Part shown: positions 13,595 to 41,461 of the stretch, piece after piece
Numbering within the stretch: position 1 is the first letter of the stretch
How the letters are laid out: each line of letters begins with the position of its first letter
Source: an uncultured Planctomycetia bacterium
GTDB taxonomy: Bacteria; Omnitrophota; Gorgyraeia; 1-14-0-20-64-10
Reading direction: 5' to 3'
DNA length: 64,000 bases
NCBI GenBank assembly: GCA_964373715.1
Contig: CAYJVR010000002.1
Span: forward strand, 118,521-182,520
Translations under genes and position numbers: made by a program
Notes under the pieces: model-generated
Database searches by the model: none
What the model was told of the DNA's origin: nothing
Seen by the model: only the letters and a program-made list of their open reading frames with translations

Positions 13595-13652
13595 GTGAAT
13601 ATCTCCTTAAGTTTTTAGACAGTTATAAGCGCGTGCTCAAGAGGGTAAAACG

Positions 13653-24379: not shown

Positions 24380-24556
24380 ATGAGTAACCGGACCCTGTTG
24401 GCCGCGCTTCTTGGAATAAGCGCAGTGACCGTGTTAGCCTCCGGCTGTCATACGATGGAAGCGCACAAGAAAGACGACGCCTGCTGCGCGCCGACCCAAA
24501 CGCAACAGCCAGTATCTGGGCATGAGCATGGCGGTAAAGAGCATGGCGGCAATTAA
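24380..24556 (+). CDS. Small (58 aa) Cys/His-rich putative lipoprotein; below the 60-aa cutoff, so absent from the supplied ORF track
   Basis: AAAGGAG RBS at 24366-24372, ATG at 24380, signal peptide + LASGC lipobox-like site, then DACCAP...GHEHGGKEHGGN. Confidence 0.4.
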   Translation: MSNRTLLAALLGISAVTVLASGCHTMEAHKKDDACCAPTQTQQPVSGHEHGGKEHGGN

Positions 24557-25012: not shown

Positions 25013-26563
25013 ATGCCCACGGCGACAACAGAAAAAAAGGTCCATATTCCGCCGATGGACCGGCACAACCAGGAGCTTGTTTCCAACGTTCACCCGTCCG
25101 ATTGGGTGAATCCGGAACCTTCCGGGCGCTACCATCTGGTTGTGATCGGAGCCGGCTCCGGAGGGATTGTCACGGCTGCCGGCGCCGCAGGTTTGGGGGC
25201 TAGGGTGGCCCTGATCGAGAAGCAGTTTCTGGGAGGGGACTGCCTGAATGCTGGCTGCGTCCCCTCCAAGTGCGTCATTCGGGCTGGCCGCGCTTTTGCC
25301 GACGTCCGGGATGCCGGCCAGTTCGGCATCCGTGTTCACGGCGTCGCCGAGGCGGATTTCCCGGCAGTGATGGAGCGTATGCGCCGGTTGCGCGCCCAGA
25401 TCAGCCATCACGATTCGGCAAAACACCTGCAAAGCCAGGGGATAGACGTTTACCTGGGAGCCGCGAGGTTCAGCGGCCCGGATACCGTGGAGGTGGGCGG
25501 TAAAACCCTCCGCTTTAAGAAGGGGGTGATCGCCACCGGCGCCCGGGCCGCCGATCCGACGATCCCGGGATTGGCGGAAGCAGGCTATCTGACCAACGAA
25601 ACGGTATTCTCTCTCACCGAACGCCCAGGCCACCTGGCGGTGATCGGCGGCGGGCCGATCGGCTGCGAGCTGGCGCAGGCGTTCCAGCGTTTGGGCTGCC
25701 GGGTGGCGATATTTCATACAGGCAATCACATCTTGAACCGGGAGGATGCCGACGCGGCCGGGATTGTCCAGCAGGTTTTCCTGCGGGAAGGAATACAGAT
25801 GGTTTTAAACGCCAAGATCCTCGGCGTTGATAAGAAAGGTTCGGAGAAAGCGATCCGGTTCGAGTCCGGCGGAAGGCCGGGATCTCTGGTATTTGACGAG
25901 ATTTTGGTCGGTGTCGGCCGGACGCCGAACGTCGAGGGGTTGAATCTGGACGCGGCCGGCGTTAAATGCGATAAGAAGAACGGAGTTGTTGTCAGCGACC
26001 GCTTGCAGACCGCAAACCCAAAAATCTACGCTGTCGGCGACGTTTGCATGGCCTATAAATTCACTCATGCCGCCGATGCCGCCGCCCGGATTGCGATAGA
26101 GAACACGCTGTTTCCGAATCTGGGGTTTATCGGCAATAAGAAACTCTCCGGTCTGGTGATGCCCTGGTGCACCTACACCGACCCGGAGATTGCCCATGTC
26201 GGCATGTACGAGAGGGACGCCCAGGGGAAAGGGATTCCGGTCGCAACCTTCGTTAAGAAATTCAGCGCGGTCGACCGGGCCGTCGTCGACGGAGAGCAGG
26301 ACGGCTTTGTGAAGGTTCACGTCCGCAAGGGGACCGACAAGATCCTCGGGGCCACGGTCGTGGCCAGGCACGCCGGGGAGATGATGAACGAGATTTCCTT
26401 GGCGGTCGTCAAAGGGATCGGCTTGGGGGCTCTTTCAGGAGTGATTCATCCTTATCCGACCCAGGCGGAGGCGATCCGGCAGCTTGGTGATGCTTATAAC
26501 GCGACCTTATTGACCCCTCGGGCGAAAAGCCTGCTGGCCGCATGGCTCAAATTCGCACGGTAA
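25013..26563 (+). CDS. Class I pyridine nucleotide-disulfide oxidoreductase (mercuric-reductase-like / dihydrolipoamide-dehydrogenase-like; no NmerA domain, no C-terminal Cys pair)
   Basis: FAD GxGxxG (VVIGAGSGG), redox-active disulfide GGDCLNAGCVPSK, NAD site VIGGGPIGCE, dimerisation-domain HPYPTQAE. Confidence 0.85.
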   Translation: MPTATTEKKVHIPPMDRHNQELVSNVHPSDWVNPEPSGRYHLVVIGAGSGGIVTAAGAAGLGARVALIEKQFLGGDCLNAGCVPSKCVIRAGRAFADVRDAGQFGIRVHGVAEADFPAVMERMRRLRAQISHHDSAKHLQSQGIDVYLGAARFSGPDTVEVGGKTLRFKKGVIATGARAADPTIPGLAEAGYLTNETVFSLTERPGHLAVIGGGPIGCELAQAFQRLGCRVAIFHTGNHILNREDADAAGIVQQVFLREGIQMVLNAKILGVDKKGSEKAIRFESGGRPGSLVFDEILVGVGRTPNVEGLNLDAAGVKCDKKNGVVVSDRLQTANPKIYAVGDVCMAYKFTHAADAAARIAIENTLFPNLGFIGNKKLSGLVMPWCTYTDPEIAHVGMYERDAQGKGIPVATFVKKFSAVDRAVVDGEQDGFVKVHVRKGTDKILGATVVARHAGEMMNEISLAVVKGIGLGALSGVIHPYPTQAEAIRQLGDAYNATLLTPRAKSLLAAWLKFAR

Positions 26564-26589: not shown

Positions 26590-27237
26590 ATGCGGTTTTT
26601 AAAGAAGGTACTTCTTATCGGATTGATTGCCGTGGTCGCCTATTTCGGCTGGAAATACCGGGCTAGCATCAGCCCGGAGGCGATCCGGGGCTGGATCTCC
26701 CGATTCGGATTGGCCGCCCCTTTTATTTATGTGGCGCTCTACGCGCTCAACACGGTCACCCTCCTGCCGCCGATAGCGATCCTGTCGTTCACGGCGGGTC
26801 TTGCGTTCGGGAAGGTGGTCGGTTTTGCGGCGCTGATGGCCGGAGCGATGACCGGAAGCACGGTCACCTTCTTCATTTCCCGGAAGCTCGGCCGGAGTTT
26901 CGTGGAAAAGCGCCTTCAGGGGAAGTTCAAATCGCTCGATGAAAAGATGGAGAAAAAAGGGTTCGCCACGGTGCTTTTTTTCCGGGCCGTGCCGATTGTT
27001 CCCTATGAGGTGCTGAACTACGTTCCCGGTCTTTCCCGTATCCGGTTCCGAGATTATTTCCTCGGAACTTTCCTTGGATTGATCCCCGGGGTTGGAATTT
27101 CGGTCTTTTTAGGAGATTCTTTAGCGACGATCAAATCAAACCCGAAAAATTTTATCATCGGTTTGGCGGCGATGGGTGTGATAATTGCCGTTCCCATCCT
27201 CTATCTGAAATTCAGGAAGAAACCGGAATCCCCCTGA
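26590..27237 (+). CDS. TVP38/TMEM64 (DedA-related, SNARE-associated) membrane protein
   Basis: Re-entrant helix pattern (LPPIAILSFTAGLAFG...FFRAVPIVPYEVLNYVPG) typical of the family. Confidence 0.75.
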   Translation: MRFLKKVLLIGLIAVVAYFGWKYRASISPEAIRGWISRFGLAAPFIYVALYALNTVTLLPPIAILSFTAGLAFGKVVGFAALMAGAMTGSTVTFFISRKLGRSFVEKRLQGKFKSLDEKMEKKGFATVLFFRAVPIVPYEVLNYVPGLSRIRFRDYFLGTFLGLIPGVGISVFLGDSLATIKSNPKNFIIGLAAMGVIIAVPILYLKFRKKPESP

Positions 27238-27278: not shown

Positions 27279-28130
27279 ATGAAAATGAAATTTACAGCGT
27301 GGATGTCGGCCGGAATTCTCTGCGGTTTAAGCGCCGTGCTTCCCACGGTGCACGCGGCGCAGTTCAGCCACACGCAGTTGGACGAAGTCCTCAAAACGTA
27401 CGTGAAAGACGGCCGGGTGGATTACAAAGCTTTGAAGATGAGGCAGGTGCGTGCCGACAGCGCGGGGCCGTTGTCCGACTACGTTGATTCTTTGGGCCGC
27501 GTGCCGCAGGCCGACTACGACGCCTGGAGCGAGACCGACAAAATCGCTTTCTGGATCAACGCCTACAACGCGATCACGCTTCAAATAGTTCTGAACCATT
27601 ACCCGATCACAAAGATGCTTATTCCGGCCGGGATCCCGTTCCCGACCAACAGCATCCGGCAGATCCCGGGCCAGTGGGACAAGATCACCCATAACATCAT
27701 GGGCAGGAAGATGACGCTGAACGACATCGAGCATGGGACGCTGCGGAAACTGTTCAAAGAACCGAGGATCCACATGGCCCTCGTCTGTGCGGCGAAAGGA
27801 TGCCCCCCTCTGCGCGGCGAAGCCTATGAAGGGAGCCGGTTGAGCGAACAACTGGATGACCAGGCCCGCGCCTATCTCTCCAGTCCCGCGGGATTCAAGC
27901 TGGACACCGTCCGCAAGAAGGTTTCTCTCTCCGCGATTTTCCAGTGGTTTTCGGAGGATTTCCTGAATGTTTACGGAGACCCGAAAGAGCCGAAATGGCT
28001 GGCCGATAAAAAACGGGTTGTTATCGCTTTTGCGTCCAAATACGTTGGTCCGCAGGAGCGGGAATTCCTGAAAAAAGAGAATTACCAAGTGTCCTTTCTA
28101 TCGTATGATTGGAGCCTGAATGAGCAGTAA
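27279..28130 (+). CDS. Secreted DUF547-domain protein
   Basis: Signal peptide; FWINAYNAITLQ and ALVCAAKGCPPL motifs match what I remember of DUF547. Confidence 0.65.
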   Translation: MKMKFTAWMSAGILCGLSAVLPTVHAAQFSHTQLDEVLKTYVKDGRVDYKALKMRQVRADSAGPLSDYVDSLGRVPQADYDAWSETDKIAFWINAYNAITLQIVLNHYPITKMLIPAGIPFPTNSIRQIPGQWDKITHNIMGRKMTLNDIEHGTLRKLFKEPRIHMALVCAAKGCPPLRGEAYEGSRLSEQLDDQARAYLSSPAGFKLDTVRKKVSLSAIFQWFSEDFLNVYGDPKEPKWLADKKRVVIAFASKYVGPQEREFLKKENYQVSFLSYDWSLNEQ

Positions 28131-28176: not shown

Positions 28177-30831
28177 ATGGAATTGACCGAGAGGAGCACC
28201 GTTTCCCTGCCCAAAACCGTCGAGTGGCAGAAAGAGGGCGTTCATATTTTTCTTGATCCTGAGACGCCTCACTGGCTAGCGGCTGATTCCAGAGGGGCGC
28301 AGATCATGAGCTGGGCCAGGGGAGAGATGCCGGTCGGCCGGATCATTCAGCGTTATTCGGAGGCGCACGGGCTCGATACGGCGAAGAGCTGGCTTCACGT
28401 GACCGATTTTCTCTCCGCCCTTCTGCGCTCCGGTTTCGCCCGGACTGAACTGGTCGCCCGGGCTCCTTACCTCGGACGAGCCGCCTACGCCCGCCCGACC
28501 GGCTTAAAGGAGCTCTGGTTCCATACCAACAACATCTGCAATCTCTCTTGCTCCCATTGTCTTGTCAGTTCCGCCCCCTGGGTGCAGGACTGGGGCCTGC
28601 CGACAGACCGGTTCCTTTCTCTCGTGGATGAGGCGATCGAGCTGGGGGTGGACAGATTTTACTTCACCGGCGGCGAGCCGTTCATGCGCAAGGATATCTT
28701 TCATCTGATCCGCACCGTTACCGAGACGAAGGGTTGCGAGCTGATCATCCTGACCAACGCTACGCTGTTGAAAGGGGAGAAAGCGGAAGGGGTCAAAACC
28801 CTCAATCGCCAGAAGGTCCGGTTCCAGGTCAGCGTGGACGGCGCCTCCCCTGAAACCAACGATCCGATTCGAGGCAAGGGGTCGTTCCAGTCGGCGGTGG
28901 AGGGGTTAAGATACCTGGCTTCGCTCGGGTTCGAGACTTCCATCACAACGGCGGTGACCGGCACCAACCTGCAGGACCTGTTGGGGATCACCCGGCTTGC
29001 CCGGGAACTCGGCGTCAAAACCCAGCATTTGATGTGGCTCCATAAGCGGGGACGGATAGTGGGCCGGGAGGAGGTGGCTGCACCTGCTGCTGTGGCTGTC
29101 GCCGCCGGCGGGAACGGTTCCAAATCCCCCGGTTGGGCCGATGGCCATCAGAGAAAAATGAAAGCCTTTTCAGGTCAGACCGAGCTTGGATTTCCGGAAT
29201 CGCAGCAGCTCATTGATGCGGTCCGGAAGGTAAAGGTTTTGGCGGATGAGCTGGGTGTCACGGTGGACAACCTCGAGTCGATCAAATTGAGGGTCAACTC
29301 CCGTCCCGGTGTAAAGTACGACTTAGGAAATGCCTGCTGGGATTCTCTCTGCATCTATTCGGACGGGAAGGTGTATCCTTCCGCGGCGATGGCCAATTTC
29401 AAGCCGCTTATGCTGGGCTCGCTGAAAGAAACCCCCTCTTTAAAAGAGATTTGGCAGCGGTCTCCGGTCGCCGAAGCGTTCCGGCAGGCCTCCGTCAACC
29501 GGAAGGCTCACCTGGCCGATGATCCGCTTCGCTACCTCACAGGCGGTGGAGATTCGGAGCACAGTTTCTTTTTTAACTTAAACGGCGATTCGGAATCCGG
29601 GACGATTGCTCCCGAGAAGATCCTCGACATTCTGTCGGGTCCCGACCCGTACTACCCGGTTTATCAGGCGATGATCCAGGATGCGATCTGGGAAATCGTT
29701 CTGCACAAACGGGACGCGGTCAACCGGAAGTCTGGCTACGATGCCCCGCGCGTCCTGCACGCGATGGGGGACGGAGCGATACACTGCGCTACCGACGATT
29801 TGGCGATCACTGGAGAGATCGATGTGAGGACCCTGCACTCTAACTGTGTTCTCGCGTTCGACGTGGACAAGCCGAGAAAGATGGTGCGGGAGTTTTACGG
29901 CAAGGCGGCCGAAACGCCGCAGGCCGAGCTTTGCTGTCCCACGAAGTTCGACGATTCCGCGATCGCCCACATCCCGAAAGATGTGATCGACCGGTTCTAC
30001 GGCTGCGGTTCTCCGGTCACCTCCGGCAATTTGAAAGAGGGAGAGACCTTTTTGGATCTTGGCTCGGGCGCCGGGATAGACTGCTTCATTGCCGCCAAGC
30101 TCGTCGGCCCGAAGGGCAAGGTGCTCGGGATCGATATGACCGATCAGATGCTGAAGGTAGCTGAAGAAAACAAGCCGATCGTCGCAAAGAATCTCGGCTA
30201 TGACGTGGTGGAGTTCCGAAAAGGATTTCTCGAGACGGTTCCGGCTGACTCAAAAAGCGTTGATCTGATTACCTCCAACTGCGTGATCAATCTTTCGCCG
30301 GACAAACCGAAGGTTTTCTCCGAGATCTGGCGGATCTTGAAGGACAACGGACGGACCGTGATCGCCGATATTGTCTCCGACCGGCCGGTGCCGGCCCATC
30401 TGAAGGTCAATCCCCAGTTGTGGGGCGAGTGCACCGTGGGGGCTCTGACCGAAGAGGAATTCCTGGCCCATCTTCAGGAAGCCGGTTTCTACGGCCTCTC
30501 GGTCTTGAAGAAGGTCTACTGGAAATCGATCGACGGCTACGATTTTTACTCGGTCACGGTGGCCGGCTACAAGTTCGAAAAGACGGCCGGCTGCACGTTC
30601 ATCGGGCAGAGGGCGATTTATCTGGGCCCGATGAAATCGGTCATGGACGAGGAAGGGCACCTGTTCCCCCGGGATGTGGAGGTGGAGGTTTGCACCGACA
30701 CCGCGGCGAAGCTCTCGAAGCCGCCGTACGCCGGCTCGTTCACTGTGATCCAACCGGACGCTCAGCGGATCTCTGTGACCGCGAACATGCAGTCTGCCGA
30801 TAGCGGCTGCGGTCCCGCAGGCTGCTGCTGA
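28177..30831 (+). CDS. Four-part fusion: PqqD-like RRE + radical SAM + SPASM/twitch-like Cys cluster + ArsM-type As(III) SAM methyltransferase, with a C-terminal Cys-rich tail (CGPAGCC)
   Basis: Residues 20-85 are PqqD/RRE-like (IFLDPETPHWLAADSRGAQIMSWARGE...DFLSALLRSG). CNLSCSHC (CxxxCxxC) + FTGGEP. NACWDSLCIYSDGKVYPS (SPASM-like). ArsM hallmarks FYGCGSP, LDLGSGAGIDCF, ITSNCVINLSPDKPKVF and WGECTVGAL. The last 12 aa are SADSGCGPAGCC. Its stop overlaps the arsR start (TGATG). Confidence 0.85.
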   Translation: MELTERSTVSLPKTVEWQKEGVHIFLDPETPHWLAADSRGAQIMSWARGEMPVGRIIQRYSEAHGLDTAKSWLHVTDFLSALLRSGFARTELVARAPYLGRAAYARPTGLKELWFHTNNICNLSCSHCLVSSAPWVQDWGLPTDRFLSLVDEAIELGVDRFYFTGGEPFMRKDIFHLIRTVTETKGCELIILTNATLLKGEKAEGVKTLNRQKVRFQVSVDGASPETNDPIRGKGSFQSAVEGLRYLASLGFETSITTAVTGTNLQDLLGITRLARELGVKTQHLMWLHKRGRIVGREEVAAPAAVAVAAGGNGSKSPGWADGHQRKMKAFSGQTELGFPESQQLIDAVRKVKVLADELGVTVDNLESIKLRVNSRPGVKYDLGNACWDSLCIYSDGKVYPSAAMANFKPLMLGSLKETPSLKEIWQRSPVAEAFRQASVNRKAHLADDPLRYLTGGGDSEHSFFFNLNGDSESGTIAPEKILDILSGPDPYYPVYQAMIQDAIWEIVLHKRDAVNRKSGYDAPRVLHAMGDGAIHCATDDLAITGEIDVRTLHSNCVLAFDVDKPRKMVREFYGKAAETPQAELCCPTKFDDSAIAHIPKDVIDRFYGCGSPVTSGNLKEGETFLDLGSGAGIDCFIAAKLVGPKGKVLGIDMTDQMLKVAEENKPIVAKNLGYDVVEFRKGFLETVPADSKSVDLITSNCVINLSPDKPKVFSEIWRILKDNGRTVIADIVSDRPVPAHLKVNPQLWGECTVGALTEEEFLAHLQEAGFYGLSVLKKVYWKSIDGYDFYSVTVAGYKFEKTAGCTFIGQRAIYLGPMKSVMDEEGHLFPRDVEVEVCTDTAAKLSKPPYAGSFTVIQPDAQRISVTANMQSADSGCGPAGCC

Positions 30832-31142
30832 TGAAGAAAAGCCTCACCCAGCATGAGGCGGCGGAGCTGTTCAAGGCGCTGGCGGATGAGACCCGCTTGA
30901 GGATCTTGCGGATCCTGTTCGAGAGGGAGCACTGCGTGACCGACCTGATGACCGAGCTGAAGCTCGCGCAGTCCTATGTGTCGCACCACTTAAAGATACT
31001 GAAAACCGCCGGGTTGATTGACTCCCGGAGGGAAGGGCATAAGATCTACTACGCCCTTTTGCCGCAGGTGAAGCAGGGATTGTCGGACGCGAAACAGGAG
31101 TCGCTCGACTTAGGTTGCTGCGAAGTGACGTTCAAGGAGTAA
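30831..31142 (+). CDS. arsR: ArsR/SmtB-family metalloregulatory repressor
   Basis: HTH (CVTDLMTELKLAQSYVSHHLKILKTAGL) and a C-terminal Cys pair (LDLGCCEV) typical of As(III)-sensing ArsR variants. Translationally coupled to the upstream gene. Confidence 0.85.
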   Translation: MKKSLTQHEAAELFKALADETRLRILRILFEREHCVTDLMTELKLAQSYVSHHLKILKTAGLIDSRREGHKIYYALLPQVKQGLSDAKQESLDLGCCEVTFKE

Positions 31143-31199: not shown

Positions 31200-32312
31200 A
31201 TGACGGCTCTTTTTCTGATTGCGGCGGTTCTTTTCCTTGCCTACACCAACGGGGCGAACGATAACTTCAAGGGGGTTGCCACACTTTTCGGCAGCAAAAC
31301 GGCCGATTACCGTAAAGCGCTTGCTTGGGCGACCGTCACCACTTTTGCCGGCTGTCTTGCCGCGATCTGGGTTTCTCAGGGGTTGATCAAGGCTTTCAGC
31401 GGAAAGGGGATCGTGCCTGCCGCGATGACGACCGATCCGAGATTTTTGTTGGCCGTCGGTTTTGGCGCTGCCCTAACCGTTTTCTTGGCAACGCTGCTCG
31501 GATTCCCGATTTCAACGACCCATGCGCTGACCGGCGCTCTGGTGGGGGCCGGGTGGATGTTGGTTGGGTCCCAGGTGAATGTGGGGAAATTGGGCCAAAG
31601 TTTCTTCCTGCCTCTGGCGTTAAGCCCTGTTGTATCTTTGGCGATTACAACAGTTTTGTATCCCTCCCTCCGGTTTATCCGGCAGACGGTCGGCGTGACG
31701 AAACAGTTGTGTCTTTGCATCGGGCCGGTCCGTGAGCCGGTTCTTGTCCGGACTGACGGGACCATGGTGATGAAAGCGACCGGGTCCGAGCTGTCGGTCG
31801 GGGAACTGAAGAACTGCGTTGAGCAGTACCAAGGGGTCCTTCTCGGCGTTGATTTCCAGCGGGTGATCGATTTTTTTCATTACCTTTCGGCCGGGGCCGT
31901 CGGTTTTGCGCGCGGGTTGAACGACGCGCCCAAGATCGTGGCCATCCTCATCACCGCCCAAGCTCTGCGCATTGGGACGAGGGAAGCCCTTCTGCTTGTC
32001 GCGGTTGCGATGGCCGCTGGCGGCATTCTGAGCGCCAAGAAGGTGGCGCAGACGATGAGCCAGCGGATCACAGCGATGAACCACGGCCAGGGATTCACAG
32101 CGAATTTGGTCACCAGCGTCCTTGTCTCGATGGCTTCCCGCTTTGCGTTGCCGGTTTCAACGACGCATGTTTCCTGCGGCGCCCTTTTCGGTATCGGTTT
32201 GGTCAACCGGAATGCCAACGTCGGTGTCATCCGGAACATCCTGCTTTCCTGGCTGATCACCCTTCCTGTCGCGGCGGGTGTGGCGGCCTCTCTCTATTGG
32301 CTACAGCGGTAG
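31200..32312 (+). CDS. PiT-family inorganic phosphate (and arsenate) transporter
   Basis: Duplicated GANDxxK/N signature (NGANDNFKG; ARGLNDAPKIVA), about 10 TM helices, and a large central loop. Confidence 0.85.
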   Translation: MTALFLIAAVLFLAYTNGANDNFKGVATLFGSKTADYRKALAWATVTTFAGCLAAIWVSQGLIKAFSGKGIVPAAMTTDPRFLLAVGFGAALTVFLATLLGFPISTTHALTGALVGAGWMLVGSQVNVGKLGQSFFLPLALSPVVSLAITTVLYPSLRFIRQTVGVTKQLCLCIGPVREPVLVRTDGTMVMKATGSELSVGELKNCVEQYQGVLLGVDFQRVIDFFHYLSAGAVGFARGLNDAPKIVAILITAQALRIGTREALLLVAVAMAAGGILSAKKVAQTMSQRITAMNHGQGFTANLVTSVLVSMASRFALPVSTTHVSCGALFGIGLVNRNANVGVIRNILLSWLITLPVAAGVAASLYWLQR

Positions 32313-32430: not shown

Positions 32431-33723
32431 ATGAAAAATATGCGTGGCCGTATGGCGTTGTGGATGGCTGGGGTCTTCTTTGTATCTTATGCTGTTCCCG
32501 TGCAGGCGTCGGAGATGGACATCCTGCTGAGGAAGTTGGTGGAGAAGAAGGTTTTGACCGAGCAGGAGGCGCAGGAAGTCCGTGGCGAGGTGGAGCAGGA
32601 AGTTGCCCGGTCCGCCAAATTCGAGAAGGAAGACGTCAAGGAAACCGTCAAGAAGATACCCGGAGGGACCTGGCTCGAGAAAACGAAATGGGCCGGCGAC
32701 CTGCGCCTGCGGCACGAGAGCCAACTGCGGGAGCCCGCGGCCGACCGGCATCGGGAACGATTCCGCTTGAGGTTCGGTTTCACGACGAAACCGTGGGACC
32801 AGATGGAGGTGGGTGTCCGGCTGGCTACCGGCGCCAGCGGTGATCCGGTTTCCACCAACCAGAGTTTTACCGGCACTTTCGACAAAAAAGCGGTTTTCAT
32901 TGACCGGGCGTACGCGAAATACACGCCGTGGCCCTGGTTCAATCTTGTTGGCGGCAAGATGGAGATACCGTTCGACACTGCCACGGAGATTTTTTGGGAC
33001 GGGGACCTGACGCCGGAAGGGGTGGCCGTTCAGTTCAAGACGCCGGAACCCCTGCCGTTTTTTAAAGAAACTTTTCCGACCAAACTGTTTGCCAACGTCG
33101 GGGCGTTTCAGATTTCGGAGCTCAGCGACGACGCCGGGGATCCGGCAATGTTTGGTTTCCAGGTTGGGAAAGAGACAGGGTTGCCCCGCGGGTTGGTGTG
33201 GACCTCTTCCATCGGTTATTATGACATCACCGCGGTCAGGGGAAAGAGGACTTCTGACATTACTCAGGTGAGCGCTCCCAGCGGCAACTCGACCGATGGT
33301 CCGGTCGCAGCGCCGGTCTACCGGTACGATTTCAACCCGCTCGATATCCAGGGGAAGCTGCTGATTCCGGATATCCTCGGCCAGCAGGTGGTGCTGATCG
33401 GGGATTTTGTCCATAACCCGGTTGCGGAGGATGATAACGGCGCCTGGCAGGCGGGCATCAAGGTGGGGAAGGTGACCGAGAAGATGGGGAGCTGGGAATC
33501 TTCCTACTACTACAAAAGAGTTGAACCGGACGCGATTTTCGGGGCGATCACCGATTCCGATTTTGGCGCCGGCGGATCGAACCATCACGGGCACCGAGTC
33601 GGCCTGCGGGTCGGTTTGAGCAAATGGACTGAGGCCGGCATCACTTATTACCGCACCGATGAGATCGAAGGGGCCCAGAACAAGGTGGATACTCTGCAGG
33701 TGGACGCTTCTGTAAAATACTGA
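32431..33723 (+). CDS. Putative outer-membrane porin (beta-barrel with an N-terminal coiled-coil segment)
   Basis: Signal peptide, charged coiled-coil N-terminus, alternating hydrophobic beta-strand pattern, C-terminal aromatic (…DASVKY). AT-rich promoter-like region upstream. Confidence 0.6.
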   Translation: MKNMRGRMALWMAGVFFVSYAVPVQASEMDILLRKLVEKKVLTEQEAQEVRGEVEQEVARSAKFEKEDVKETVKKIPGGTWLEKTKWAGDLRLRHESQLREPAADRHRERFRLRFGFTTKPWDQMEVGVRLATGASGDPVSTNQSFTGTFDKKAVFIDRAYAKYTPWPWFNLVGGKMEIPFDTATEIFWDGDLTPEGVAVQFKTPEPLPFFKETFPTKLFANVGAFQISELSDDAGDPAMFGFQVGKETGLPRGLVWTSSIGYYDITAVRGKRTSDITQVSAPSGNSTDGPVAAPVYRYDFNPLDIQGKLLIPDILGQQVVLIGDFVHNPVAEDDNGAWQAGIKVGKVTEKMGSWESSYYYKRVEPDAIFGAITDSDFGAGGSNHHGHRVGLRVGLSKWTEAGITYYRTDEIEGAQNKVDTLQVDASVKY

Positions 33724-33799: not shown

Positions 33800-34855
33800 A
33801 TGCTGATGCGCCGCGGATTGTGGATAACAGTTATTGCGCTCGCTGGGTTTATCTCAATCGTGAGCCCCGCCGCCGCTTCTTCGAAGCAGGAAACGGTCAT
33901 TGAAGCGGGCGCGTTCTCGAACGGTTTGCCGGCCGGTTTTCCGGAGGGGTGGGAGCTTGTGCCGGCTAAAACCTCGGGGAAACGAACCCTTTACCAGCTT
34001 GTCCGTGAAGGGGAAATCGTTGTCTTAAAAGCGGTCAGCCAAGCAGCCTCCTCCGGCCTGATGCGGGTGGTCTCTTTAAATCCCCGGGATTACCCGATTA
34101 TCCAGTGGCGCTGGAAAGTGGAGGATCTCCTCCGCAGAAGTGATATTTTCCGTAAAAATGGAGACGATTTTTCTGCCCGGCTCTTTCTTTCTTTTGAAAC
34201 AGATCCCTCCAAGGCGGGATGGAGGGAAAGAATTTACATCCAGGCCGGCCGGCTTCTTTACGGGGATTACCCTCTGGCGGAAGGGCTCAACTATGTCTGG
34301 GCCAGCCGCGAGCCTGAGGGAACTATGACTTCCAGTCCGTACACCGAGAGGCTCAAAACAGTTGTTATCGAGAGCGGCAGCGGCAAGCTGAACACGTGGG
34401 TGGTGGAGGAACGGAATTTTTATGAGGACTACAAAAAGGCTTTCGGGCAGGAGCCGCCCGCTCTTTACAGCGTGGCGGTGATGACGGATACCGATAATAC
34501 CGGCGGGACGGCGGTGGCTTATTACGGGGATATCCTCTTCAGTAAAGAGCCGTTGAAAAGCGTGATGGAGGGGCAGCCGAGATATGGTACGATCACCGAG
34601 AGTTCTTCACTTCCAGGCATTCAGGGGACCGCCATCATCTCAAAAAATATTGACCAGCGAGGCCGCCGCGTTAGAGCGCTGGGGGGGATTGCCCTCCTGG
34701 CGGCGGCCCTCTTGTTGGTGTTGGGAGTCCCTTCCTGGCCGGTATGGAAGATTATCATCGTGATCAGCTTTTCGTGCGGCGGGTTGTTCATGCTTTTCGA
34801 GGCCTTCAGCGGGTGGTGTGTGCTGCGCGCCTGCGGCATAAAAACCCCCGTATAG
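33800..34855 (+). CDS. Secreted DUF3047-like domain protein with a C-terminal YgaP/DUF2892-like two-helix membrane anchor
   Basis: Signal peptide. C-terminal LGGIALLAAALLLVLG...SFSCGGLFMLFEAFSGWCVLRACG matches the Gx-W-C...R-x-CG pattern of DUF2892. The DUF3047 assignment is from memory. Confidence 0.55.
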   Translation: MLMRRGLWITVIALAGFISIVSPAAASSKQETVIEAGAFSNGLPAGFPEGWELVPAKTSGKRTLYQLVREGEIVVLKAVSQAASSGLMRVVSLNPRDYPIIQWRWKVEDLLRRSDIFRKNGDDFSARLFLSFETDPSKAGWRERIYIQAGRLLYGDYPLAEGLNYVWASREPEGTMTSSPYTERLKTVVIESGSGKLNTWVVEERNFYEDYKKAFGQEPPALYSVAVMTDTDNTGGTAVAYYGDILFSKEPLKSVMEGQPRYGTITESSSLPGIQGTAIISKNIDQRGRRVRALGGIALLAAALLLVLGVPSWPVWKIIIVISFSCGGLFMLFEAFSGWCVLRACGIKTPV

Positions 34856-34869
34856 GAAACCTTAGATTA

Positions 34870-36393
34870 GTGAGAGTTGTCATTATCGGCGCGGGCATCG
34901 GCGGGTTGGCTTGCGGGATCCGTCTGGCGTCGCGCGGTTATCAGGTCACGATCCTTGAAAAGAACGAGATAGCCGGCGGGCGATGCAACCGCTATCAGGA
35001 AAAGGGTTTTACGTTCGACACCGGGCCGACCCTTTTCATGATGACCGACACCCTTGAAGAGCTTTTTCGGTATGCCGGCCGAAAGATGTCCGATTACGTG
35101 ACCCTGTGCCGGATTGATCCCGCCTACAGAATCACCTATTCCGATGGCCAAACTCTTGAGTTCACCGATAGGATGAAGATTCTGGAGGAGGAGATCCGGA
35201 AATTCGGCCCCCGTGAGCTTCAGGGATTCTACCGGTACGCGGCCCAGAACGGCGAATCGTACAGGCACCTGCGGGCGAAGTTCATCGACAAACCGCTGGA
35301 GGTTCCCTCCCAGTGGGCTGATTTAGAGTCGCTTGGCCTGCTGGCCCGGCTGAAGCCTTGGAGAGATGTCCTTTCGGTGGCCAAACGGCACTTTGATTCT
35401 CCCCACCTGCGGATGGCGTTCAGCTTTCACACGCTCTATCTGGGGATTTCCCCGCAGGCAGCCCCGTCCATGTACACCATGCTTCCTTATATTGATCTCG
35501 TGCAGGGGGTCCATTACCCTCTCGGTGGGATGTCCCAGATTCCGGCGGCTTTAACGCGCCTCTTCGGCGAGCTCGGAGGAGAGATACGGTATGGCGTCGA
35601 GGTCGAGCAGATCGTCACCAGTTCGGGCCGTGTCAGGGAGGTGCTTCTGCACGATGAGAGAACCGTCCCTGCCGACGTCGTCGTTTCGAACGTTGATATG
35701 CCGGTCACGATGAACCGTTTCCTGAAGCACCAGCCGATGTCCGGCCACAAGCGGCGCGTCCTCAAGATGAAAAGGGGCTGTTCCGCCGCCGTTTTTCTCT
35801 TGGGGCTCGACAAGGCCTATCCGCAGTTGTCCCACCATAACCTCTATTTGCCGATGGTTTTTGAGAGATCTCTTCATGAGTTGTTTGATCTGGGGCAAAT
35901 CCCTCAAGAACCGGCCTTTTATCTGTGTGCGCCTGCAAGAACGGATGCGGCGATGGCACCAAAGGGGTCCGAGAGCGTCATGATTTTAGTACCTTGTCCG
36001 AATGAGGAGGTGCTGCCGGATGTCGGCGCGCAGATGCCCCTGTTACGTGAGAAACTTTTGAACCTTTTGGACCGAACGTTTTTGCCGGATATCCGGCGCC
36101 ATATCATTGTCGATAAAACTCTGCCTCCCTCCTGGTATGGGCGGCGCTACGCGTTGGCCGGTTCGGCCACATTCGGTTTCTTGCCGACATTTTTCCAGTC
36201 AGCGATGTTCCGGCCCCAGAGGCGGTCTCCGGACGTCCGGGGCCTTTACTATGCCGGGGCCAGCACCCATCCGGGCAACGGAATCCCGATCGTTTTAATC
36301 GCCGGCCGATTTGCCGCTGAGGCTATTGTTGAAGATTTTGGTTCGGTGCGCCATGTCCTCCCTTCTGTCCGAAACGTTACGCCAATCGGTTGA
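34870..36393 (+). CDS. Phytoene-desaturase-family (CrtI/CrtN/CrtP-like) FAD-dependent oxidoreductase, copy 1; likely GTG start at 34870
   Basis: VVIIGAGIGGLACGIRLA...ILEKNEIAGGR dinucleotide-binding fold; C-terminal GAGTHPG-like motif (YYAGASTHPGNGIP). Confidence 0.8.
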   Translation: MRVVIIGAGIGGLACGIRLASRGYQVTILEKNEIAGGRCNRYQEKGFTFDTGPTLFMMTDTLEELFRYAGRKMSDYVTLCRIDPAYRITYSDGQTLEFTDRMKILEEEIRKFGPRELQGFYRYAAQNGESYRHLRAKFIDKPLEVPSQWADLESLGLLARLKPWRDVLSVAKRHFDSPHLRMAFSFHTLYLGISPQAAPSMYTMLPYIDLVQGVHYPLGGMSQIPAALTRLFGELGGEIRYGVEVEQIVTSSGRVREVLLHDERTVPADVVVSNVDMPVTMNRFLKHQPMSGHKRRVLKMKRGCSAAVFLLGLDKAYPQLSHHNLYLPMVFERSLHELFDLGQIPQEPAFYLCAPARTDAAMAPKGSESVMILVPCPNEEVLPDVGAQMPLLREKLLNLLDRTFLPDIRRHIIVDKTLPPSWYGRRYALAGSATFGFLPTFFQSAMFRPQRRSPDVRGLYYAGASTHPGNGIPIVLIAGRFAAEAIVEDFGSVRHVLPSVRNVTPIG

Positions 36394-37819
36394 CCTCAAC
36401 GGCGGTTCGGCCGCGCAGGCTGTTTCCGGCGCCCGGGCCGCTTTTGAAAGATGGAGATCCCTGTCTATCCGCCAGCGTGCGGCCTATCTGTTCACACTGC
36501 GCCGCCGGATCGCCGCCCAAGCGGAATCTCTCTCTCAGCTAATTGCCGAAGAGAACGGGAAGCCGGTCCTCGAAGCGTTAGGGGCGGAGGTTTTCGGGTC
36601 TCTGGAAGCTCTCGGCGTCCTTTTGTCGGAGGGGGAGAAATGGCTTGCTCCCGAAAATATCCGGATGACTTTTTTTGACCGGTTCCGTGGAGTGCGCCGA
36701 AGACAGCTCTTTTATGAACCGTTCGGTGTTATCGGGATCATAGGCACCTGGAATTACCCTCTTTTGATCAACATGAGGCAGATTACCAGCGCTTTATTTG
36801 CCGGCAACACCGTTGTCTGGAAACCGTCGGAACTTTCGCTGAATCTCGCCGTTCGTCTGCAGTCTCTTTTCGAGGAAGCCGGTTTCCCCGAGGGGGTCTT
36901 CACCCTCCTTCCCGGGGATAGCCGGGCCGGAGAGGCCCTTATTAAGGCGGGATGCGATAAGGTCATTTTTACCGGCCATGGGAAGACCGGCCGCAGGATT
37001 CTTGCTGCGTTGGCTGAACAGGCGGTGCCCTCGGTTATGGAGCTCTCCGGGGCGGACGCCGCTTTGGTTTGCGAGGATGCCGATCTTCCACTTGCCGTGA
37101 AAGGCCTGGCCTGGGGCGCGATGACCAACGCGGGGCAGTCCTGTGTCGCCAGCCGGCGCATTATCGTTCATCAGACTGTTTACCCTGTTTTCGCGGATGC
37201 CTTTCTCAAGATTGTCCGCGCCTTAAAGATCGGCGACCCGAAGAATCCGGACACGGAGGTTGGGCCGCTGAGGACGCAGGCGCAGGCGGATCTTTTGGAG
37301 GAGTTGATCCGGGATGCCGTCGGTAAAGGGGCCGTTGTATTGGCGGGCGGACGCCGATTGAACAATCCCGGAGGTGTTTTTTTTGAGCCGGCGGTTTTGA
37401 CAGGGGTAAACGATTCCATGACCATTGTCCGGGAAGAATTCTTCGGTCCGGTGGTTCTGTTATTTTCCGCCCGGGATGAGGGGGAGATGGTTGCGTTTGC
37501 CAACAACTCTCCGTACGGATTGGGCGCCAGCGTTTGGACCAGGGATCGCCGCCGCGGCCAGCGCCTCGCTTCCCGGTTGGAGTCGGGGATTGTTTGGGTC
37601 AATGAAGCCCTTTTTTCGGCCGGAGACGGTCGTCTTCCTTTCGGCGGCGTCAAAGGGTCTGGTTTCGGGCGGGTGGGCGGAGCGGAGGGTTTAAGGCAGA
37701 TGGCCCGCGTGAAATGCGTTGAGGAGGCGTCGCCTCAGGGGTTCCGTCCCCACTATTTCCCTTATGGCGCTGAGAAATATAAGCAGCTTTCCAAAATCAT
37801 CCGCTGGAGGCATCGGTGA
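36353..37819 (+). CDS. NAD(P)-dependent aldehyde dehydrogenase
   Basis: GTWNYPL, VVWKPSE, catalytic ELSGADAALV (Glu), GQSCVA (Cys) and EEFFGPV motifs. Confidence 0.85.
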   Translation: MSSLLSETLRQSVDLNGGSAAQAVSGARAAFERWRSLSIRQRAAYLFTLRRRIAAQAESLSQLIAEENGKPVLEALGAEVFGSLEALGVLLSEGEKWLAPENIRMTFFDRFRGVRRRQLFYEPFGVIGIIGTWNYPLLINMRQITSALFAGNTVVWKPSELSLNLAVRLQSLFEEAGFPEGVFTLLPGDSRAGEALIKAGCDKVIFTGHGKTGRRILAALAEQAVPSVMELSGADAALVCEDADLPLAVKGLAWGAMTNAGQSCVASRRIIVHQTVYPVFADAFLKIVRALKIGDPKNPDTEVGPLRTQAQADLLEELIRDAVGKGAVVLAGGRRLNNPGGVFFEPAVLTGVNDSMTIVREEFFGPVVLLFSARDEGEMVAFANNSPYGLGASVWTRDRRRGQRLASRLESGIVWVNEALFSAGDGRLPFGGVKGSGFGRVGGAEGLRQMARVKCVEEASPQGFRPHYFPYGAEKYKQLSKIIRWRHR

Positions 37820-37868
37820 CCCCACCACCTGTTTTCTCGGTGATGGGCAGGTTAAAGGAGGTGGTGGG

Positions 37869-39398
37869 GTGAGCCGTATCGCTGTGGTTGGAGGCGGACT
37901 TGCCGGTTTGGCCGCCGCTATCCGCTGCGCCCACGCGGGGCATGAAGTGACTCTGTTTGAGAAGAACGACCGGGCGGGGGGGAAGATGAACGTGATCGAG
38001 GAACGAGGGTTCCTTTTCGACACCGGCCCCACCATTATGACGATGCCGCAGAATCTGAACCGGTTGTTTGCCTCGGTAGGCCGGCGGCGGGAGGATTACA
38101 TTCCGCTCGTTCCGCTTGATCCCCAGTGGCGGGCTTTTTTCGAGGACGGGAAGGTGATCAACGTTTGGGGGAACCGGGGAAAAATGACCGAAGAGATCCG
38201 CCGGTTTTCGAGCAAAGATGCCGATTCGTACGCCCGGTTCCGGGAATATGCGCAAAGGATGTACGGGTTTGCGGAGAGGTTCTTCTTCTGGCGTTCGGTG
38301 AGCAATCTGAACGACCTGCTGGCGATGAACGGCCTGATGGGTATGGAGAGCATGAAAATCCTGTGGCAGATAGATCCGCTAGCGACCGTTTCAAACGCGA
38401 TTGACCGGCATTTCCAGGAGCCTCATGTGCGGCAGATCTTAGAGCATTTCATGCAGTACGTTGGTTCGGACCCGCACCGGGTCCCGGCGTTCCTGACGGC
38501 CATTCACCATATCCAGATGGAGTTCGGTGTCTGGTACCCGATGGGGGGCATGAATCGGATTGCCGCCGGCCTGACCCGGCTGGCGAATGATCTCGGCGTG
38601 AAGATTGTCCTTAACGCCCAGATCAGCCGGATCGTAACCGAAGGATTCCGTGTCCGAGGTGTGGAACTCCAGGGAGAGATGGTTCCGGCCGATGCGGTCC
38701 TTGCCAATTCGAACTTTGTTCGTTCCCACAAAGAGCTTCTGCCGGCGACCGCCACAAAACGACGCATTGAGAATAACCCTAAAAGGTATGAACCGGCCTG
38801 TTCGGGGATCGTGATCTATTTTGGGGTGGACCGGAAATATGATTCTCTCTGGCACCACGACTTCTTTTTTTCAAAGGATCCGAAACGGGAATTTGAGGAC
38901 ATCTACCGAAGGAAAATCCCGACGCAGGACCCGACGCTGTGCGTCTGCGCCCCTTCCCGGACCGACGCCTCCGTGGCTCCGCCCGGCTGCGAAAACGTTT
39001 ACGTGCTGGTGCATACTCCATACCTGCAGGGAAAAGAAAACTGGGAGACCCTCTACCGGCCGTACAGAGACCTGATCGTCCGGAAGCTGGAGAGGTGCGG
39101 GCTGACCGATTTCCGGAAACACATCGTAGTGGAGAAGTGGATGACGCCGGTGGATTTGGAGCAGCGGTACCGGGTGGACCGAGGGGCAATCTATGGGATC
39201 GCCAGCCACGGCCGGTTCCGGGGAGGGTTTAAACCTTCCAACCGGTCGAAAGATTTTTCGAATCTCTACTTCTGCGGAGGCAGCGTTAATCCCGGCCCCG
39301 GTGTCCCGATGGCGCTCATGTCGGGGCAGATTGCCGCCGACTGCGTTCTTGAGGACATCGGTTCGGTTCGTGCCTTCCGGCAGCCTAGTTTGGTTTAA
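37869..39398 (+). CDS. Phytoene-desaturase-family FAD-dependent oxidoreductase, copy 2; likely GTG start at 37869, preceded by AAAGGAGG
   Basis: IAVVGGGLAGLAAA...LFEKNDRAGGK; C-terminal YFCGGSVNPGPGVP. Confidence 0.8.
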   Translation: MSRIAVVGGGLAGLAAAIRCAHAGHEVTLFEKNDRAGGKMNVIEERGFLFDTGPTIMTMPQNLNRLFASVGRRREDYIPLVPLDPQWRAFFEDGKVINVWGNRGKMTEEIRRFSSKDADSYARFREYAQRMYGFAERFFFWRSVSNLNDLLAMNGLMGMESMKILWQIDPLATVSNAIDRHFQEPHVRQILEHFMQYVGSDPHRVPAFLTAIHHIQMEFGVWYPMGGMNRIAAGLTRLANDLGVKIVLNAQISRIVTEGFRVRGVELQGEMVPADAVLANSNFVRSHKELLPATATKRRIENNPKRYEPACSGIVIYFGVDRKYDSLWHHDFFFSKDPKREFEDIYRRKIPTQDPTLCVCAPSRTDASVAPPGCENVYVLVHTPYLQGKENWETLYRPYRDLIVRKLERCGLTDFRKHIVVEKWMTPVDLEQRYRVDRGAIYGIASHGRFRGGFKPSNRSKDFSNLYFCGGSVNPGPGVPMALMSGQIAADCVLEDIGSVRAFRQPSLV

Positions 39399-39404
39399 AA
39401 AACG

Positions 39405-40508
39405 GTGTCAGCCAACCTTTACACCCATCCTCCGTCGAGGTTGTTGTACGCTCAGGTCAGGGAAGATCCCGATGTGGATCTTCAAGCTCTGCGTATTGTT
39501 CCCGACGACAAGGTGCTGGCCGTCACCTCCGGCGGCTGCACCGCGCTGACCCTGCTGGCGGAAGGGCCGAAGGAGCTCCTCTGCGTCGATTTCAACCCCG
39601 CCCAGAATTACCTGCTCGAGCTTAAACTGGCGGCGATCCGCAGTCTGCCCCTGGTTGAATGCCGATCTTTCCTCGGGGCCCGTAAAGGAGGCGGACGGTT
39701 GGCCGCGTACCGGTCCCTGACCGGAGCGCTTTCACCGCTGACCCGGGTCTTTTGGGACAAGAACCCCCAGAGGATCGAGGAGGGGGTCCTTTACGCGGGC
39801 GCCACCGAAGCGATGGTGAAATGGATGAGGCGCCTTGTCTTTGGGTTTGTCCATTCTCCCGAGACGTTAAGGCCTTTGCTTAAACAGAGAGATACGCAGG
39901 CCCAAACCGATTTTTACAAGAATGTTTGGAACAATAAACGGTGGCAAGGTGTAATGAAACTGGCTTTCCATCCGCTGATGTTCAAAGTTGTTTACGGGCG
40001 CCGGTTTCTTCAACGGCTCGGCGAGGAAGATCTTACCAGTTTGTGGATGCAGAAGATCGAGCATGCCTTCACAGATATCCCGGTCCGAAACAACTATTTT
40101 CTTTCCCAGTTATTTTGGGGAAGGTTCCTTCCCGGAGAAGAAGGGCTGCCGCCCTATCTGCGTGAAGGGGTCTTCGAGCGGGTCCGGGCGAACGCCGGCC
40201 GTTTGAAATGGGTGACGGGCGATCTTATCACTGTTTTAGGAAGCGTTCCTCTGGGGCGTTACACCAGGATGACCCTTTCCAACGCTTTTGAGTGGATTCC
40301 AAAAATGAGGACAAAAGAGGCGTTTGAGTCTCTGTCCTGGGCTCTCGCACCCGGCGGGAAGGCGGTTGTGCGGCACCTGCTGGGCGTGACCCCTCTGCCG
40401 GCCGGCGTTGATTTGCGGGAGCTCAAAGAAGTCAGCGATCGGCTGACAGTCCAGGAAAGGGCATTCCTTTACAGCCGGGTATCGGTTTATGAAAGGACCC
40501 GGCAATGA
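39405..40508 (+). CDS. DUF3419 / BtaA-like protein (family of SAM:diacylglycerol 3-amino-3-carboxypropyl transferase)
   Basis: N-terminal LLYAQVREDPDVDLQAL...VLAVTSGGCTAL matches the YAQVWEDP...SAGCN signature I recall for BtaA/DUF3419. Confidence 0.6.
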   Translation: MSANLYTHPPSRLLYAQVREDPDVDLQALRIVPDDKVLAVTSGGCTALTLLAEGPKELLCVDFNPAQNYLLELKLAAIRSLPLVECRSFLGARKGGGRLAAYRSLTGALSPLTRVFWDKNPQRIEEGVLYAGATEAMVKWMRRLVFGFVHSPETLRPLLKQRDTQAQTDFYKNVWNNKRWQGVMKLAFHPLMFKVVYGRRFLQRLGEEDLTSLWMQKIEHAFTDIPVRNNYFLSQLFWGRFLPGEEGLPPYLREGVFERVRANAGRLKWVTGDLITVLGSVPLGRYTRMTLSNAFEWIPKMRTKEAFESLSWALAPGGKAVVRHLLGVTPLPAGVDLRELKEVSDRLTVQERAFLYSRVSVYERTRQ

Positions 40509-41461
40509 CGGCTGTTGTTTCGCGCAGGTGGTTAGGCCCGCTGTGCAGGTGGCTCTGGTATCTGTCCCTCTCTTATTTATGGCTTGGCCTGATGTTCCTC
40601 CTGTTCATCCATCAGGCGACCTCTTTTTTCTGGTGGGGTTTGCCAGCGGCCGTCATTTTTTGGAGATTGGCGAAAGCTCTGTCGCCGCATTCTTTCGGAA
40701 CCTTCGGCAAATGGACGGTCCATTTTCTCTGCGCGTTTTTGCTTATCGGCGGGCAAGTTCTCCTATGGCGTTACGGCTATTTTTTCCGGGATCCGGAAAG
40801 GGTAATCCCTTCCCGGCCGGCTATCCTGGCTCCGGCGGATGGTTTTATCGTTTATATCCGGCCGGTCAGCGAGGGGATGGTTCCTCTGGCCATCAAGAAC
40901 AAGGTGCCGATCCGGTTGGAGGAGATCCTCAAGATGGAGAGTCCCATCGGGGAAAGCGTGATCGTCGGGATCTTCATGACGCCGATGAGCGTCCACATCA
41001 ACCGGTCCCCGATCAACGGTGTTATCCAGGAGAGGGCCTACTTTACGGGGGAGCCGATGCGCTCGATGCTGCCGATGGGTCTTCGCACGATGTTTCTTCG
41101 AAAACCTTTTGAAGCGGGGTCGGAGCATATTCTCCGGAATGAGAGGGAGACCCTGTTGATCCGAGGAGATTTCCCGGTTTTGCTGACCCGTATTGCCGAC
41201 CCTTTCGTGGATAAGATTGTGACCTGGAAAACCATCGGAGAGACGGTCCGGCAGGGTGAACGGCTGGGGCTCATCAAGATGGGTTCCCAAACGGATCTGG
41301 TGTTTCCTTCCCGGATGAACGGCAAGCCGGTCCGCGTTTATGTCAAAGAGGGACAGTATGTGTATGCCGGCAGCACCATTCTCGCCGATTACGATGGCGC
41401 TGCCCTCGCACACCACCCTCTCCCCCTGCTAGGGGGAGAGGATAAAGGTGAGGGGGTATGA
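40505..41461 (+). CDS. Phosphatidylserine-decarboxylase-like (pyruvoyl-dependent) enzyme with N-terminal TM segments
   Basis: Three N-terminal TM helices; FMTPMSVHINRSP.NG and LIKMGSQTD (the G-S-T/Q self-cleavage region) resemble PSD family motifs. ATGA overlap with the upstream gene. Confidence 0.65.
   Translation: MTAVVSRRWLGPLCRWLWYLSLSYLWLGLMFLLFIHQATSFFWWGLPAAVIFWRLAKALSPHSFGTFGKWTVHFLCAFLLIGGQVLLWRYGYFFRDPERVIPSRPAILAPADGFIVYIRPVSEGMVPLAIKNKVPIRLEEILKMESPIGESVIVGIFMTPMSVHINRSPINGVIQERAYFTGEPMRSMLPMGLRTMFLRKPFEAGSEHILRNERETLLIRGDFPVLLTRIADPFVDKIVTWKTIGETVRQGERLGLIKMGSQTDLVFPSRMNGKPVRVYVKEGQYVYAGSTILADYDGAALAHHPLPLLGGEDKGEGV

Follow-up and report, generated by a model that had tools for sequence, protein, structure and literature searches.

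Can one polypeptide unite radical S-adenosylmethionine (SAM) chemistry with the methylation of arsenic? To our knowledge, every demonstration of arsenosugar-type biosynthesis, mainly in cyanobacteria, has involved ArsM and ArsS as separate enzymes. The question is raised by a 64,000-nucleotide stretch of contig CAYJVR010000002.1 (positions 118,521 to 182,520; hereafter the window) from an uncultured bacterium of the Omnitrophota. In it, one gene encodes an 884-residue fusion of a RiPP (peptide made on the ribosome and modified after translation) recognition element (RRE), a radical SAM core, a SPASM-derived region and an ArsM-type methyltransferase. Our analysis indicates that the gene lies in what is most likely an ArsS-type cluster lacking arsS, and that the fusion is probably a single-polypeptide counterpart of the ArsS and ArsM pair of the arsenosugar-type cluster.

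Modules of the fusion protein

The open reading frame (ORF) starts with ATG, approximately 10 nt downstream of a GGAGG. Since we recovered 602 homologs at E≤1e-10, at least 120 of them full-length, the ORF is confirmed as genuine and not a product of chance. Relatives are encoded in at least 558 species-level genomes, so the fusion is neither rare nor unique. The predicted full-length model has a pLDDT of 87 and a pTM of 0.87. No NCBIfam model reached its cutoff with the protein.

The C-terminal third resembles ArsM. Pfam Methyltransf_31 matched residues 620-770 (1.9e-31), phmmer with the C-terminal 321 residues retrieved CrArsM (5.6e-41) and CmArsM (7e-40), and the nearest Foldseek matches of this part of the full-length model were CrArsM, CmArsM and human AS3MT, at 31-35% identity over ~300 aligned columns. 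The best NCBIfam match was arsenite methyltransferase PRK11873 (227.7 bits; cutoff 263). The models for arsenosugar ArsM (NF038099) and arsinothricin ArsM (NF040538) gave 156 bits against a cutoff of 400 and 214 against 500, and positions 168-346 of the latter aligned to residues 691-869, the ArsM C-terminal domain. The methyltransferase of the annotated arsS cluster described below scored lower still, at 177.1 bits.

This region carries the motifs YGCG (608-611), LDLGSGAGIDCF (626-637), SNCVINLSPDK (700-710) and WGECTVGAL (749-757). The cysteines of the YGCG, SNCV and GEC motifs (C610, C702 and C752) align to Cys72, Cys174 and Cys224 of CmArsM, and a CC pair (C586/C587) aligns to the first conserved Cys (CmArsM Cys44). 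Across 82 aligned sequences of the family, C586, C587, C610, C702, C752 and C806 were 100% conserved, and C839 and the tail residues C878, C883 and C884 were 99-100% conserved. The domain thus has SAM motif I, the four conserved Cys and the C-terminal domain in common with ArsM/AS3MT enzymes (CmArsM, 4fs8; CrArsM, 5evj; human AS3MT, 8xt7). Unlike them, it forms only the C-terminal third of an 884-residue protein, has CC at the first Cys position and ends in a conserved C...CC. The ArsM/AS3MT-type domain is complete, with all catalytic Cys, and As(III) methylation is predicted for it.

The protein ends in the tail SADSGCGPAGCC, which is predicted to be disordered and not docked in the full-length model. 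Of 120 homologs, 114 terminate in C-x(1-12)-CC. Since the stand-alone ArsM-like methyltransferase of the Acinetobacter arsS cluster already has both an N-terminal CC pair and the end ...GDCC, the Cys tail is apparently inherited from the ArsM-like subfamily and is no invention of the fusion.

At the other end of the protein, the N terminus gave no Pfam match to PF05402 (PqqD) even at E≤10, but 17 of 26 homolog N termini did (best E, 9.3e-7). The top PDB sequence match of a profile built from the homolog N termini was the lasso-peptide RRE TbiB1. An AlphaFold2 model of residues 1-108 (pLDDT 91) contains three strands followed by three helices, and its best Foldseek matches were all RREs: TbiB1 (7.7e-5), PqqD (8e-3), lasso B1, ThcOx, CteB, TigE and PbtF. 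Because of the homolog matches, the TbiB1 profile match and the predicted topology with its structural matches, a PqqD-like RRE is confirmed at the level of the modeled fold.

The radical SAM core was matched by Pfam Radical_SAM (PF04055) at residues 119-274 (1.9e-25) and contains CNLSCSHC (121-128) and FTGGEP (163-168). C121, C125, C128 and G165-G166-E167 were invariant in the 82 sequences. The ArsS model, TIGR04167, gave 59.7-61.2 bits against a cutoff of 300 and matched the core only. Fold matches of the radical SAM part were to SkfB, SuiB, CteB and anSME, and its NCBIfam similarity was to generic SPASM/twitch families. For residues 1-565 as a whole, the best structural matches were the RiPP maturases SkfB, SuiB, CteB and TigE, which likewise combine an N-terminal RRE, a radical SAM core and a C-terminal Fe-S domain. 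The fusion differs from these maturases in having lost the canonical SPASM Cys, in being joined to ArsM and in belonging to a small-molecule arsenical cluster with no precursor gene found. By these comparisons, its radical SAM module is no ortholog of ArsS and was apparently recruited from an RRE-bearing SPASM (RiPP-maturase-like) lineage.

The second Cys cluster contains the motif CWDSLCIYSDGKVYP (residues 387-401). The Pfam SPASM match here was marginal (residues 387-438; 24.3 bits versus a gathering score of 21.5). The seven-Cys pattern of SPASM domains (CX9-15GX4C ... CX2CX5CX3C ... C) is incomplete, as no CX2CX5CX3C motif occurs in the fusion, and S402 occupies the expected position of the second SPASM Cys, where at least 90% of members have Ser. 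Nevertheless, among the 82 members, C392 (100%), C537 (98%) and C557 (100%) are conserved, and exactly one Cys is found at position 387 or 413 in 76: G387 with C413 in 43 and C387 with a non-Cys at 413 in 33, while no member has both and 6 have neither. Because a fourth Cys that moves between 387 and 413 accompanies C392, C537 and C557, the region fits a putative single twitch-like auxiliary cluster with four Cys ligands, the fourth of which migrates.

One could read the degenerate SPASM motif as a sign that only the ArsM module is functional, serving plain detoxification, with the radical SAM half left as a relic or as a regulatory or redox appendage. We consider this very improbable: CX3CX2C, GGE and ~60 other residues of the radical SAM half are invariant across phyla, the complementary pattern at 387/413 indicates selection for an auxiliary cluster, and the architecture has been kept across the 558 or more species.

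Most of this architecture had been proposed in an earlier note made from the DNA sequence alone. The ORF, all quoted motifs and the four modules were found as that note described them. The PqqD-type RRE was borne out by the homolog matches and the fold search (PF05402 failing on the fusion itself and succeeding on homologs), and the radical SAM core by PF04055 and its invariant motifs. The ArsM assignment stands with the full Cys triad, as opposed to a generic UbiE-type domain devoid of it, and the terminal C...CC proved to be a family trait. Of the suggested SPASM/twitch-type cluster, the canonical SPASM set is degenerate and the twitch-like alternative fits.

Cluster partners in the window and beyond

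The fusion gene is part of a tightly spaced cluster on one strand (Table 1). We compared it with a PGAP-annotated cluster on an Acinetobacter portensis plasmid (NZ_CP096121.1), which has, in a row, arsS, a gene joining VTT to an FAD oxidoreductase, DUF547, TIGR04283 and TIGR04282, then a gene annotated as "methyltransferase domain-containing protein" and one for an inorganic phosphate transporter (PiT), with mtnP alongside. A Burkholderia thailandensis plasmid carries a looser form. The matches between window and Acinetobacter genes had E values from 9e-24 to 6e-89 (identities in Table 1). NCBI names both TIGR04283 and TIGR04282 "arsenosugar biosynthesis glycosyltransferase", and both models matched the window above cutoff. 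The match of Acinetobacter ArsS to the fusion was confined to the radical SAM core (28% over 41% of ArsS), and hhalign placed just 143 core columns, ArsS residues 21-164. A motif scan of the loci and the window revealed no second radical SAM enzyme or ArsS near the fusion. Since the partner genes match those of the arsS cluster, ArsS matches the core alone and no second radical SAM gene is nearby, the window most likely contains an ArsS-type cluster in which ArsS, itself absent, has given way to a radical SAM module that is not orthologous to it, resembles RiPP maturases and is fused to an ArsM-like methyltransferase.

The ArsS and ArsM pairs of Synechocystis, in which arsS and arsM are co-transcribed neighbors, and of the Acinetobacter plasmid resemble the fusion in combining a radical SAM enzyme with an ArsM-type methyltransferase, in their Cys-rich C termini and in their cluster partners. 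Unlike ArsS, the radical SAM part of the fusion has an N-terminal RRE, carries a SPASM-derived domain in place of the C-terminal domain of ArsS, and is covalently joined to the methyltransferase. The earlier note had envisaged a new organoarsenical or As-modified-peptide pathway. The gene-by-gene orthology, with two TIGR04283 copies and one TIGR04282, places the fusion instead in a known cluster type. Our results partly support the interpretation of that note: the protein is related to arsenic and undescribed, but it represents a new architectural variant within this cluster type and not a new pathway.

Table 1. Coordinates of the fusion gene, its modules and the surrounding cluster in the window (identities are to proteins of the Acinetobacter arsS cluster)
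Feature	Position	Strand	Evidence and remarks
Fusion gene (RRE / radical SAM / twitch-like / ArsM, 884 aa)	28177..30831	+	ORF, Pfam, NCBIfam, homologs, model
PqqD-like RRE domain, aa 1-95, bbb-aaa winged helix	28177..28461	+	Homolog HMM matches, model, fold search; invariant P31, W33, W72, R84
Radical SAM core, aa 110-295	28504..29061	+	CX3CX2C aa 121-128 (nt 28537-28560), GGE aa 165-167
Low-complexity insert, aa 299-335	29071..29181	+	Lineage-specific, disordered by prediction
Degenerate SPASM / twitch-like region, aa 340-565	29194..29871	+	Candidate ligands C392, C537, C557, C387 (C413 in other members)
Putative ArsM/AS3MT-type As(III) SAM methyltransferase with ArsM C-terminal domain, aa 566-860	29872..30756	+	C586/C587, C610, C702, C752, C806, C839; 32-33% identity to methyltransferase over 95% of the latter's length
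Disordered C-terminal tail, end C878-GPAG-C883-C884	30772..30828	+	
MerA/Lpd-like FAD disulfide oxidoreductase	25013..26563	+	NF004991, 814 bits; 39% identity to FAD half of VTT/FAD oxidoreductase
VTT/DedA (TVP38/TMEM64) membrane protein	26590..27237	+	
DUF547 protein	27279..28130	+	30% identity to DUF547
ArsR/SmtB regulator	30831..31142	+	Start overlaps fusion stop codon; C-terminal GCC pair
PiT/PHO4-family transporter	31200..32312	+	43% identity to PiT
Porin_5 outer-membrane porin	32431..33723	+	Found in this lineage only
DUF3047 protein	33806..34855	+	Recurs beside both kinds of fusion
Lineage-specific block: CrtI-like oxidase, aldehyde dehydrogenase, second CrtI-like oxidase, DUF3419, phosphatidylserine-decarboxylase-like	34813..41461	+	
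Two TIGR04283 copies and one TIGR04282 in one protein	41458..43395	+	444.8 bits vs cutoff 182; 200.9 vs 134; 41% identity to TIGR04283, 35% to TIGR04282
2x[4Fe-4S] ferredoxin	43455..43781	+	Position kept in another locus (L088)

Recurrent neighbors were counted by tblastn over 84 fusion loci and from called genes in individual loci, with agreeing results, and the partners recur in different phyla. PiT was the most frequent, lying beside the fusion in 41 loci (in 39 of them on its strand) at a median of 59 bp downstream. DUF2064 (TIGR04282-like) was found in 25, the FAD oxidoreductase in 19, VTT in 18, GT2 (TIGR04283-like) in 16 and DUF547 in 11. The PiT proteins of these 41 loci are ~370 residues long and score far below the PitA and CysP cutoffs, and a C-x-C is conserved in a loop (QLCLCIG in the window; HMCLCVD in L010). 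Going by these features, the partner PiT may import arsenate rather than phosphate. The ferredoxin at the end of the window cluster is a possible electron donor.

Other features belong to the window and its closest relative (L087). The ArsR protein (L087: 12609-12950) has one Cys left of the classical CVC site and a conserved C-terminal pair (DLGCCEV), which we take to be reminiscent of ArsRs whose C-terminal cysteines serve in sensing As(III) or methylarsenite. A small predicted lipoprotein of 58-59 residues (window 24380-24556; L087 4820-4999) has a lipobox and CC-x-P motifs (ACCAP in the window; GCCPP and SCCAP in L087), which recall the tails with CC seen in many members of the fusion family; the window copy also has a His-rich tail. 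Going by its motifs, this lipoprotein may bind metal(loid)s in the periplasm. The Ala/Gly-rich insert between the radical SAM core and the twitch-like domain is confined to the closest relatives and missing in most homologs. Outside the cluster, window positions 8621-15089 (- strand) hold a heme-copper oxidase cluster with COX1, an 815-residue CtaA-CtaB (COX15/UbiA) fusion and a cytochrome c-EB_dh fusion, in what appears to be an Omnitrophota genome.

Proposed chemistry and its alternatives

The reaction of ArsS, in which a 5'-deoxyadenosyl radical adds to DMAs(III), is redox-neutral (PMC13598754). By analogy, the ArsM module of the fusion would bind As(III) through C610, C702 and C752, with C586/C587 for the disulfide cascade, and methylate it to its trivalent monomethyl form, MAs(III), and then to the dimethyl form, DMAs(III). 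The trivalent methylarsenical would be handed directly to the radical SAM site within the same polypeptide, a step in which the flexible Cys triad C878, C883 and C884 may help, by analogy with the C-terminal As-binding Cys motif of ArsL. The [4Fe-4S] cluster would cleave SAM, and a carbon radical, which as in ArsS is most likely 5'-deoxyadenosyl, would add to arsenic to form the next C-As bond, with the auxiliary cluster relaying an electron. The TIGR04282/TIGR04283 transferases of the cluster would process the product downstream.

Several observations weigh against this model. The RRE is strongly conserved and, since no conserved small ORF lies near the fusion, would have no assigned role in it. 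The ArsM scores fall below the curated NCBIfam cutoffs (227.7 versus 263 for the best). The "arsenosugar" names of TIGR04282 and TIGR04283 presumably rest on gene association and not on experiment. An ArsR gene neighbors the fusion in only 4 of 85 loci, and the classical ars resistance genes were not recurrent among the fusion neighbors. Finally, mtnP (S-methyl-5'-thioadenosine phosphorylase) adjoins both annotated arsS clusters examined (L125 12518-13381; L126 8048-8929), where it could remove adenine from an adenosyl-arsenical, and was found in only one fusion-type locus, not in the window. Since mtnP is nearly missing from these loci, the product may be no adenosyl-arsenical, or may be processed differently. 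Two fusion loci (L084 and L088) have a GH1 glycosidase in place of mtnP.

The near absence of mtnP bears on whether the chemistry is that of ArsL. Three cysteines at the C terminus of ArsL hold trivalent arsenic (PMC13598754). ArsL is the noncanonical radical SAM enzyme of arsinothricin biosynthesis; as proposed for the fusion, it makes a C-As bond on arsenic so held and is partnered with an ArsM. It differs in being a separate protein, in cleaving SAM at C-gamma and in belonging to an arsQML cluster without TIGR04282/04283 partners. If the fusion acted similarly, another carbon radical (e.g., 3-amino-3-carboxypropyl) would be transferred to arsenic before or after methylation, giving an arsinothricin-like or new organoarsenical and no arsenosugar precursor. 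The methyltransferase domain does score higher on the arsinothricin ArsM model than on the arsenosugar one (214 versus 156 bits), but both scores are under their cutoffs. The C-terminal Cys triad resembles the As-binding RCCLKC motif of ArsL, yet no specific homology to ArsL was detected, no ArsL model being among the 25 radical SAM matches listed for the fusion, and the partners are arsS-cluster genes, including both TIGR04282 and TIGR04283. The window cluster also contains DUF3419, which we take to be the BtaA family of SAM:diacylglycerol aminocarboxypropyl transferases, but this gene is absent from the 84 other loci. On balance, we find ArsL-like chemistry unlikely.

DUF3419 is part of a lipid-type block with two CrtI-like amine oxidases, which is kept in the closest relative and, as a whole, is absent from the 84 other loci. 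The block hints that the end product of the window lineage may be lipid-linked.

The earlier note took the RRE to imply a peptide or protein substrate. We looked for a precursor gene within 3.5 kb of the fusion in the 84 loci and found no conserved small ORF. The search yielded only low-complexity artefacts and a ThiS-like gene in three loci, and the intergenic space beside the fusion gene in the window leaves no room for a peptide gene. The claim is therefore without support. The ThiS/MoaD-like protein, with a ...VPAVAGG motif, is encoded 1-2.5 kb upstream of the fusion (L037 6624-6917, L043 6551-6853 and L081 5231-5557), and in L081 its gene adjoins xanthine-dehydrogenase-type genes.

RRE-guided chemistry would nonetheless account for a confident RRE fold with invariant core residues. 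The RRE could recruit a peptide, a partner protein or the protein's own Cys tail for modification by the radical SAM module, yielding a peptide that bears As or is cross-linked, or else an arsenical intermediate tethered to protein. The closest resemblance of the radical SAM half is to the RiPP maturases SkfB, SuiB, CteB and TigE, and relatives exist as stand-alone PqqD-radical SAM-SPASM proteins. Set against this are the missing small ORF, the degenerate SPASM Cys set, cluster partners that are small-molecule enzymes common to arsS clusters, and a tail predicted to be disordered and undocked, which together make this reading quite unlikely. One specific form of carrier, which we judge improbable, would have the RRE dock a Cys-bearing peptide, either the protein's own C...CC tail or the tail of a partner protein, which would carry As between the ArsM and radical SAM sites; the C-As bond would then form on a protein-tethered arsenical, or an As-modified peptide would be the product. 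We know of no organoarsenical pathway with such carrier-arm logic.

It is also rather doubtful that the substrate is something other than arsenic, namely that the module and cluster act on antimony, selenium, tellurium or a thiol-containing metabolite and that the "arsenosugar" labels mislead. That every ArsM model scored under its cutoff would agree with such a substrate, as would the related NCBIfam models, which describe selenoprotein variants of unknown function, the mercury or thiol-redox genes beside the fusion in some loci and the rarity of adjacent ars resistance genes. However, conservation covers the full Cys tetrad and the C-terminal domain of ArsM, with 31-35% identity to enzymes crystallized with As(III), the gene that overlaps the fusion gene encodes an ArsR with a Cys pair at its C terminus, and the orthologous cluster holds ArsS, whose arsenic chemistry has been demonstrated. 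We therefore keep the ArsS and ArsM counterpart as the probable role of the fusion.

Distribution and significance of the family

Fusions were found in Omnitrophota, Acidobacteriota, Gemmatimonadota, Planctomycetota (anammox bacteria, including Scalindua), Elusimicrobiota, Nitrospirota, Nitrospinota and other phyla, where the source annotation is generic ("methyltransferase domain-containing protein"). The radical SAM clusters linked to ladderanes and type II fatty acid synthesis in anammox bacteria (PMC2649909) are unrelated to the fusion.

An exhaustive search with the N-terminal 565 residues uncovered a diversified superfamily, in which the PqqD-radical SAM-SPASM unit occurs alone, with a methyltransferase, with a methyltransferase and DUF5714, and with a methyltransferase and GT2. 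In the variants with DUF5714 or GT2, the As-binding triad is retained, but neither the CC pair nor the tail is present. The DUF5714-type fusions (radical SAM, ArsM-like and DUF5714; P0187, P0185 and P0148; 1020-1080 residues; loci L089-L113) are ~33% identical to the N-terminal half of the window fusion. In the DUF5714 region they resemble MbdU, a double selenoprotein that binds metal (143 bits), and their partners are GT2, DUF2064, FAD oxidoreductase, VTT, DUF3047 and DUF547, never PiT. A truncated 948-residue protein (P0172) is a triple fusion of radical SAM, ArsM-like and TIGR04283-type GT2 modules, and provides a Rosetta-stone link between the fusion and the TIGR04283-type transferase.

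Our literature search found no paper on a radical SAM-ArsM fusion or on an RRE/SPASM-type enzyme in arsenic metabolism; the sole ArsM fusion mentioned was ArsM-SelD of Naegleria gruberi. With no NCBIfam model at cutoff, this agrees with the earlier statement that the fusion is undescribed.

Our results suggest that many uncultivated bacteria of soil, groundwater and sediment encode a fused version of the ArsS and ArsM pair whose radical SAM module is of independent origin. If the predicted activity is correct, the organisms credited with complex organoarsenicals would expand greatly, and the fusion would represent a second, convergent solution to radical C-As bond formation. Methylation and radical alkylation, both acting on a toxic and easily oxidized intermediate, could then be studied together in one self-contained enzyme, and the fusion would exemplify an RRE domain retained outside a recognizable RiPP context.

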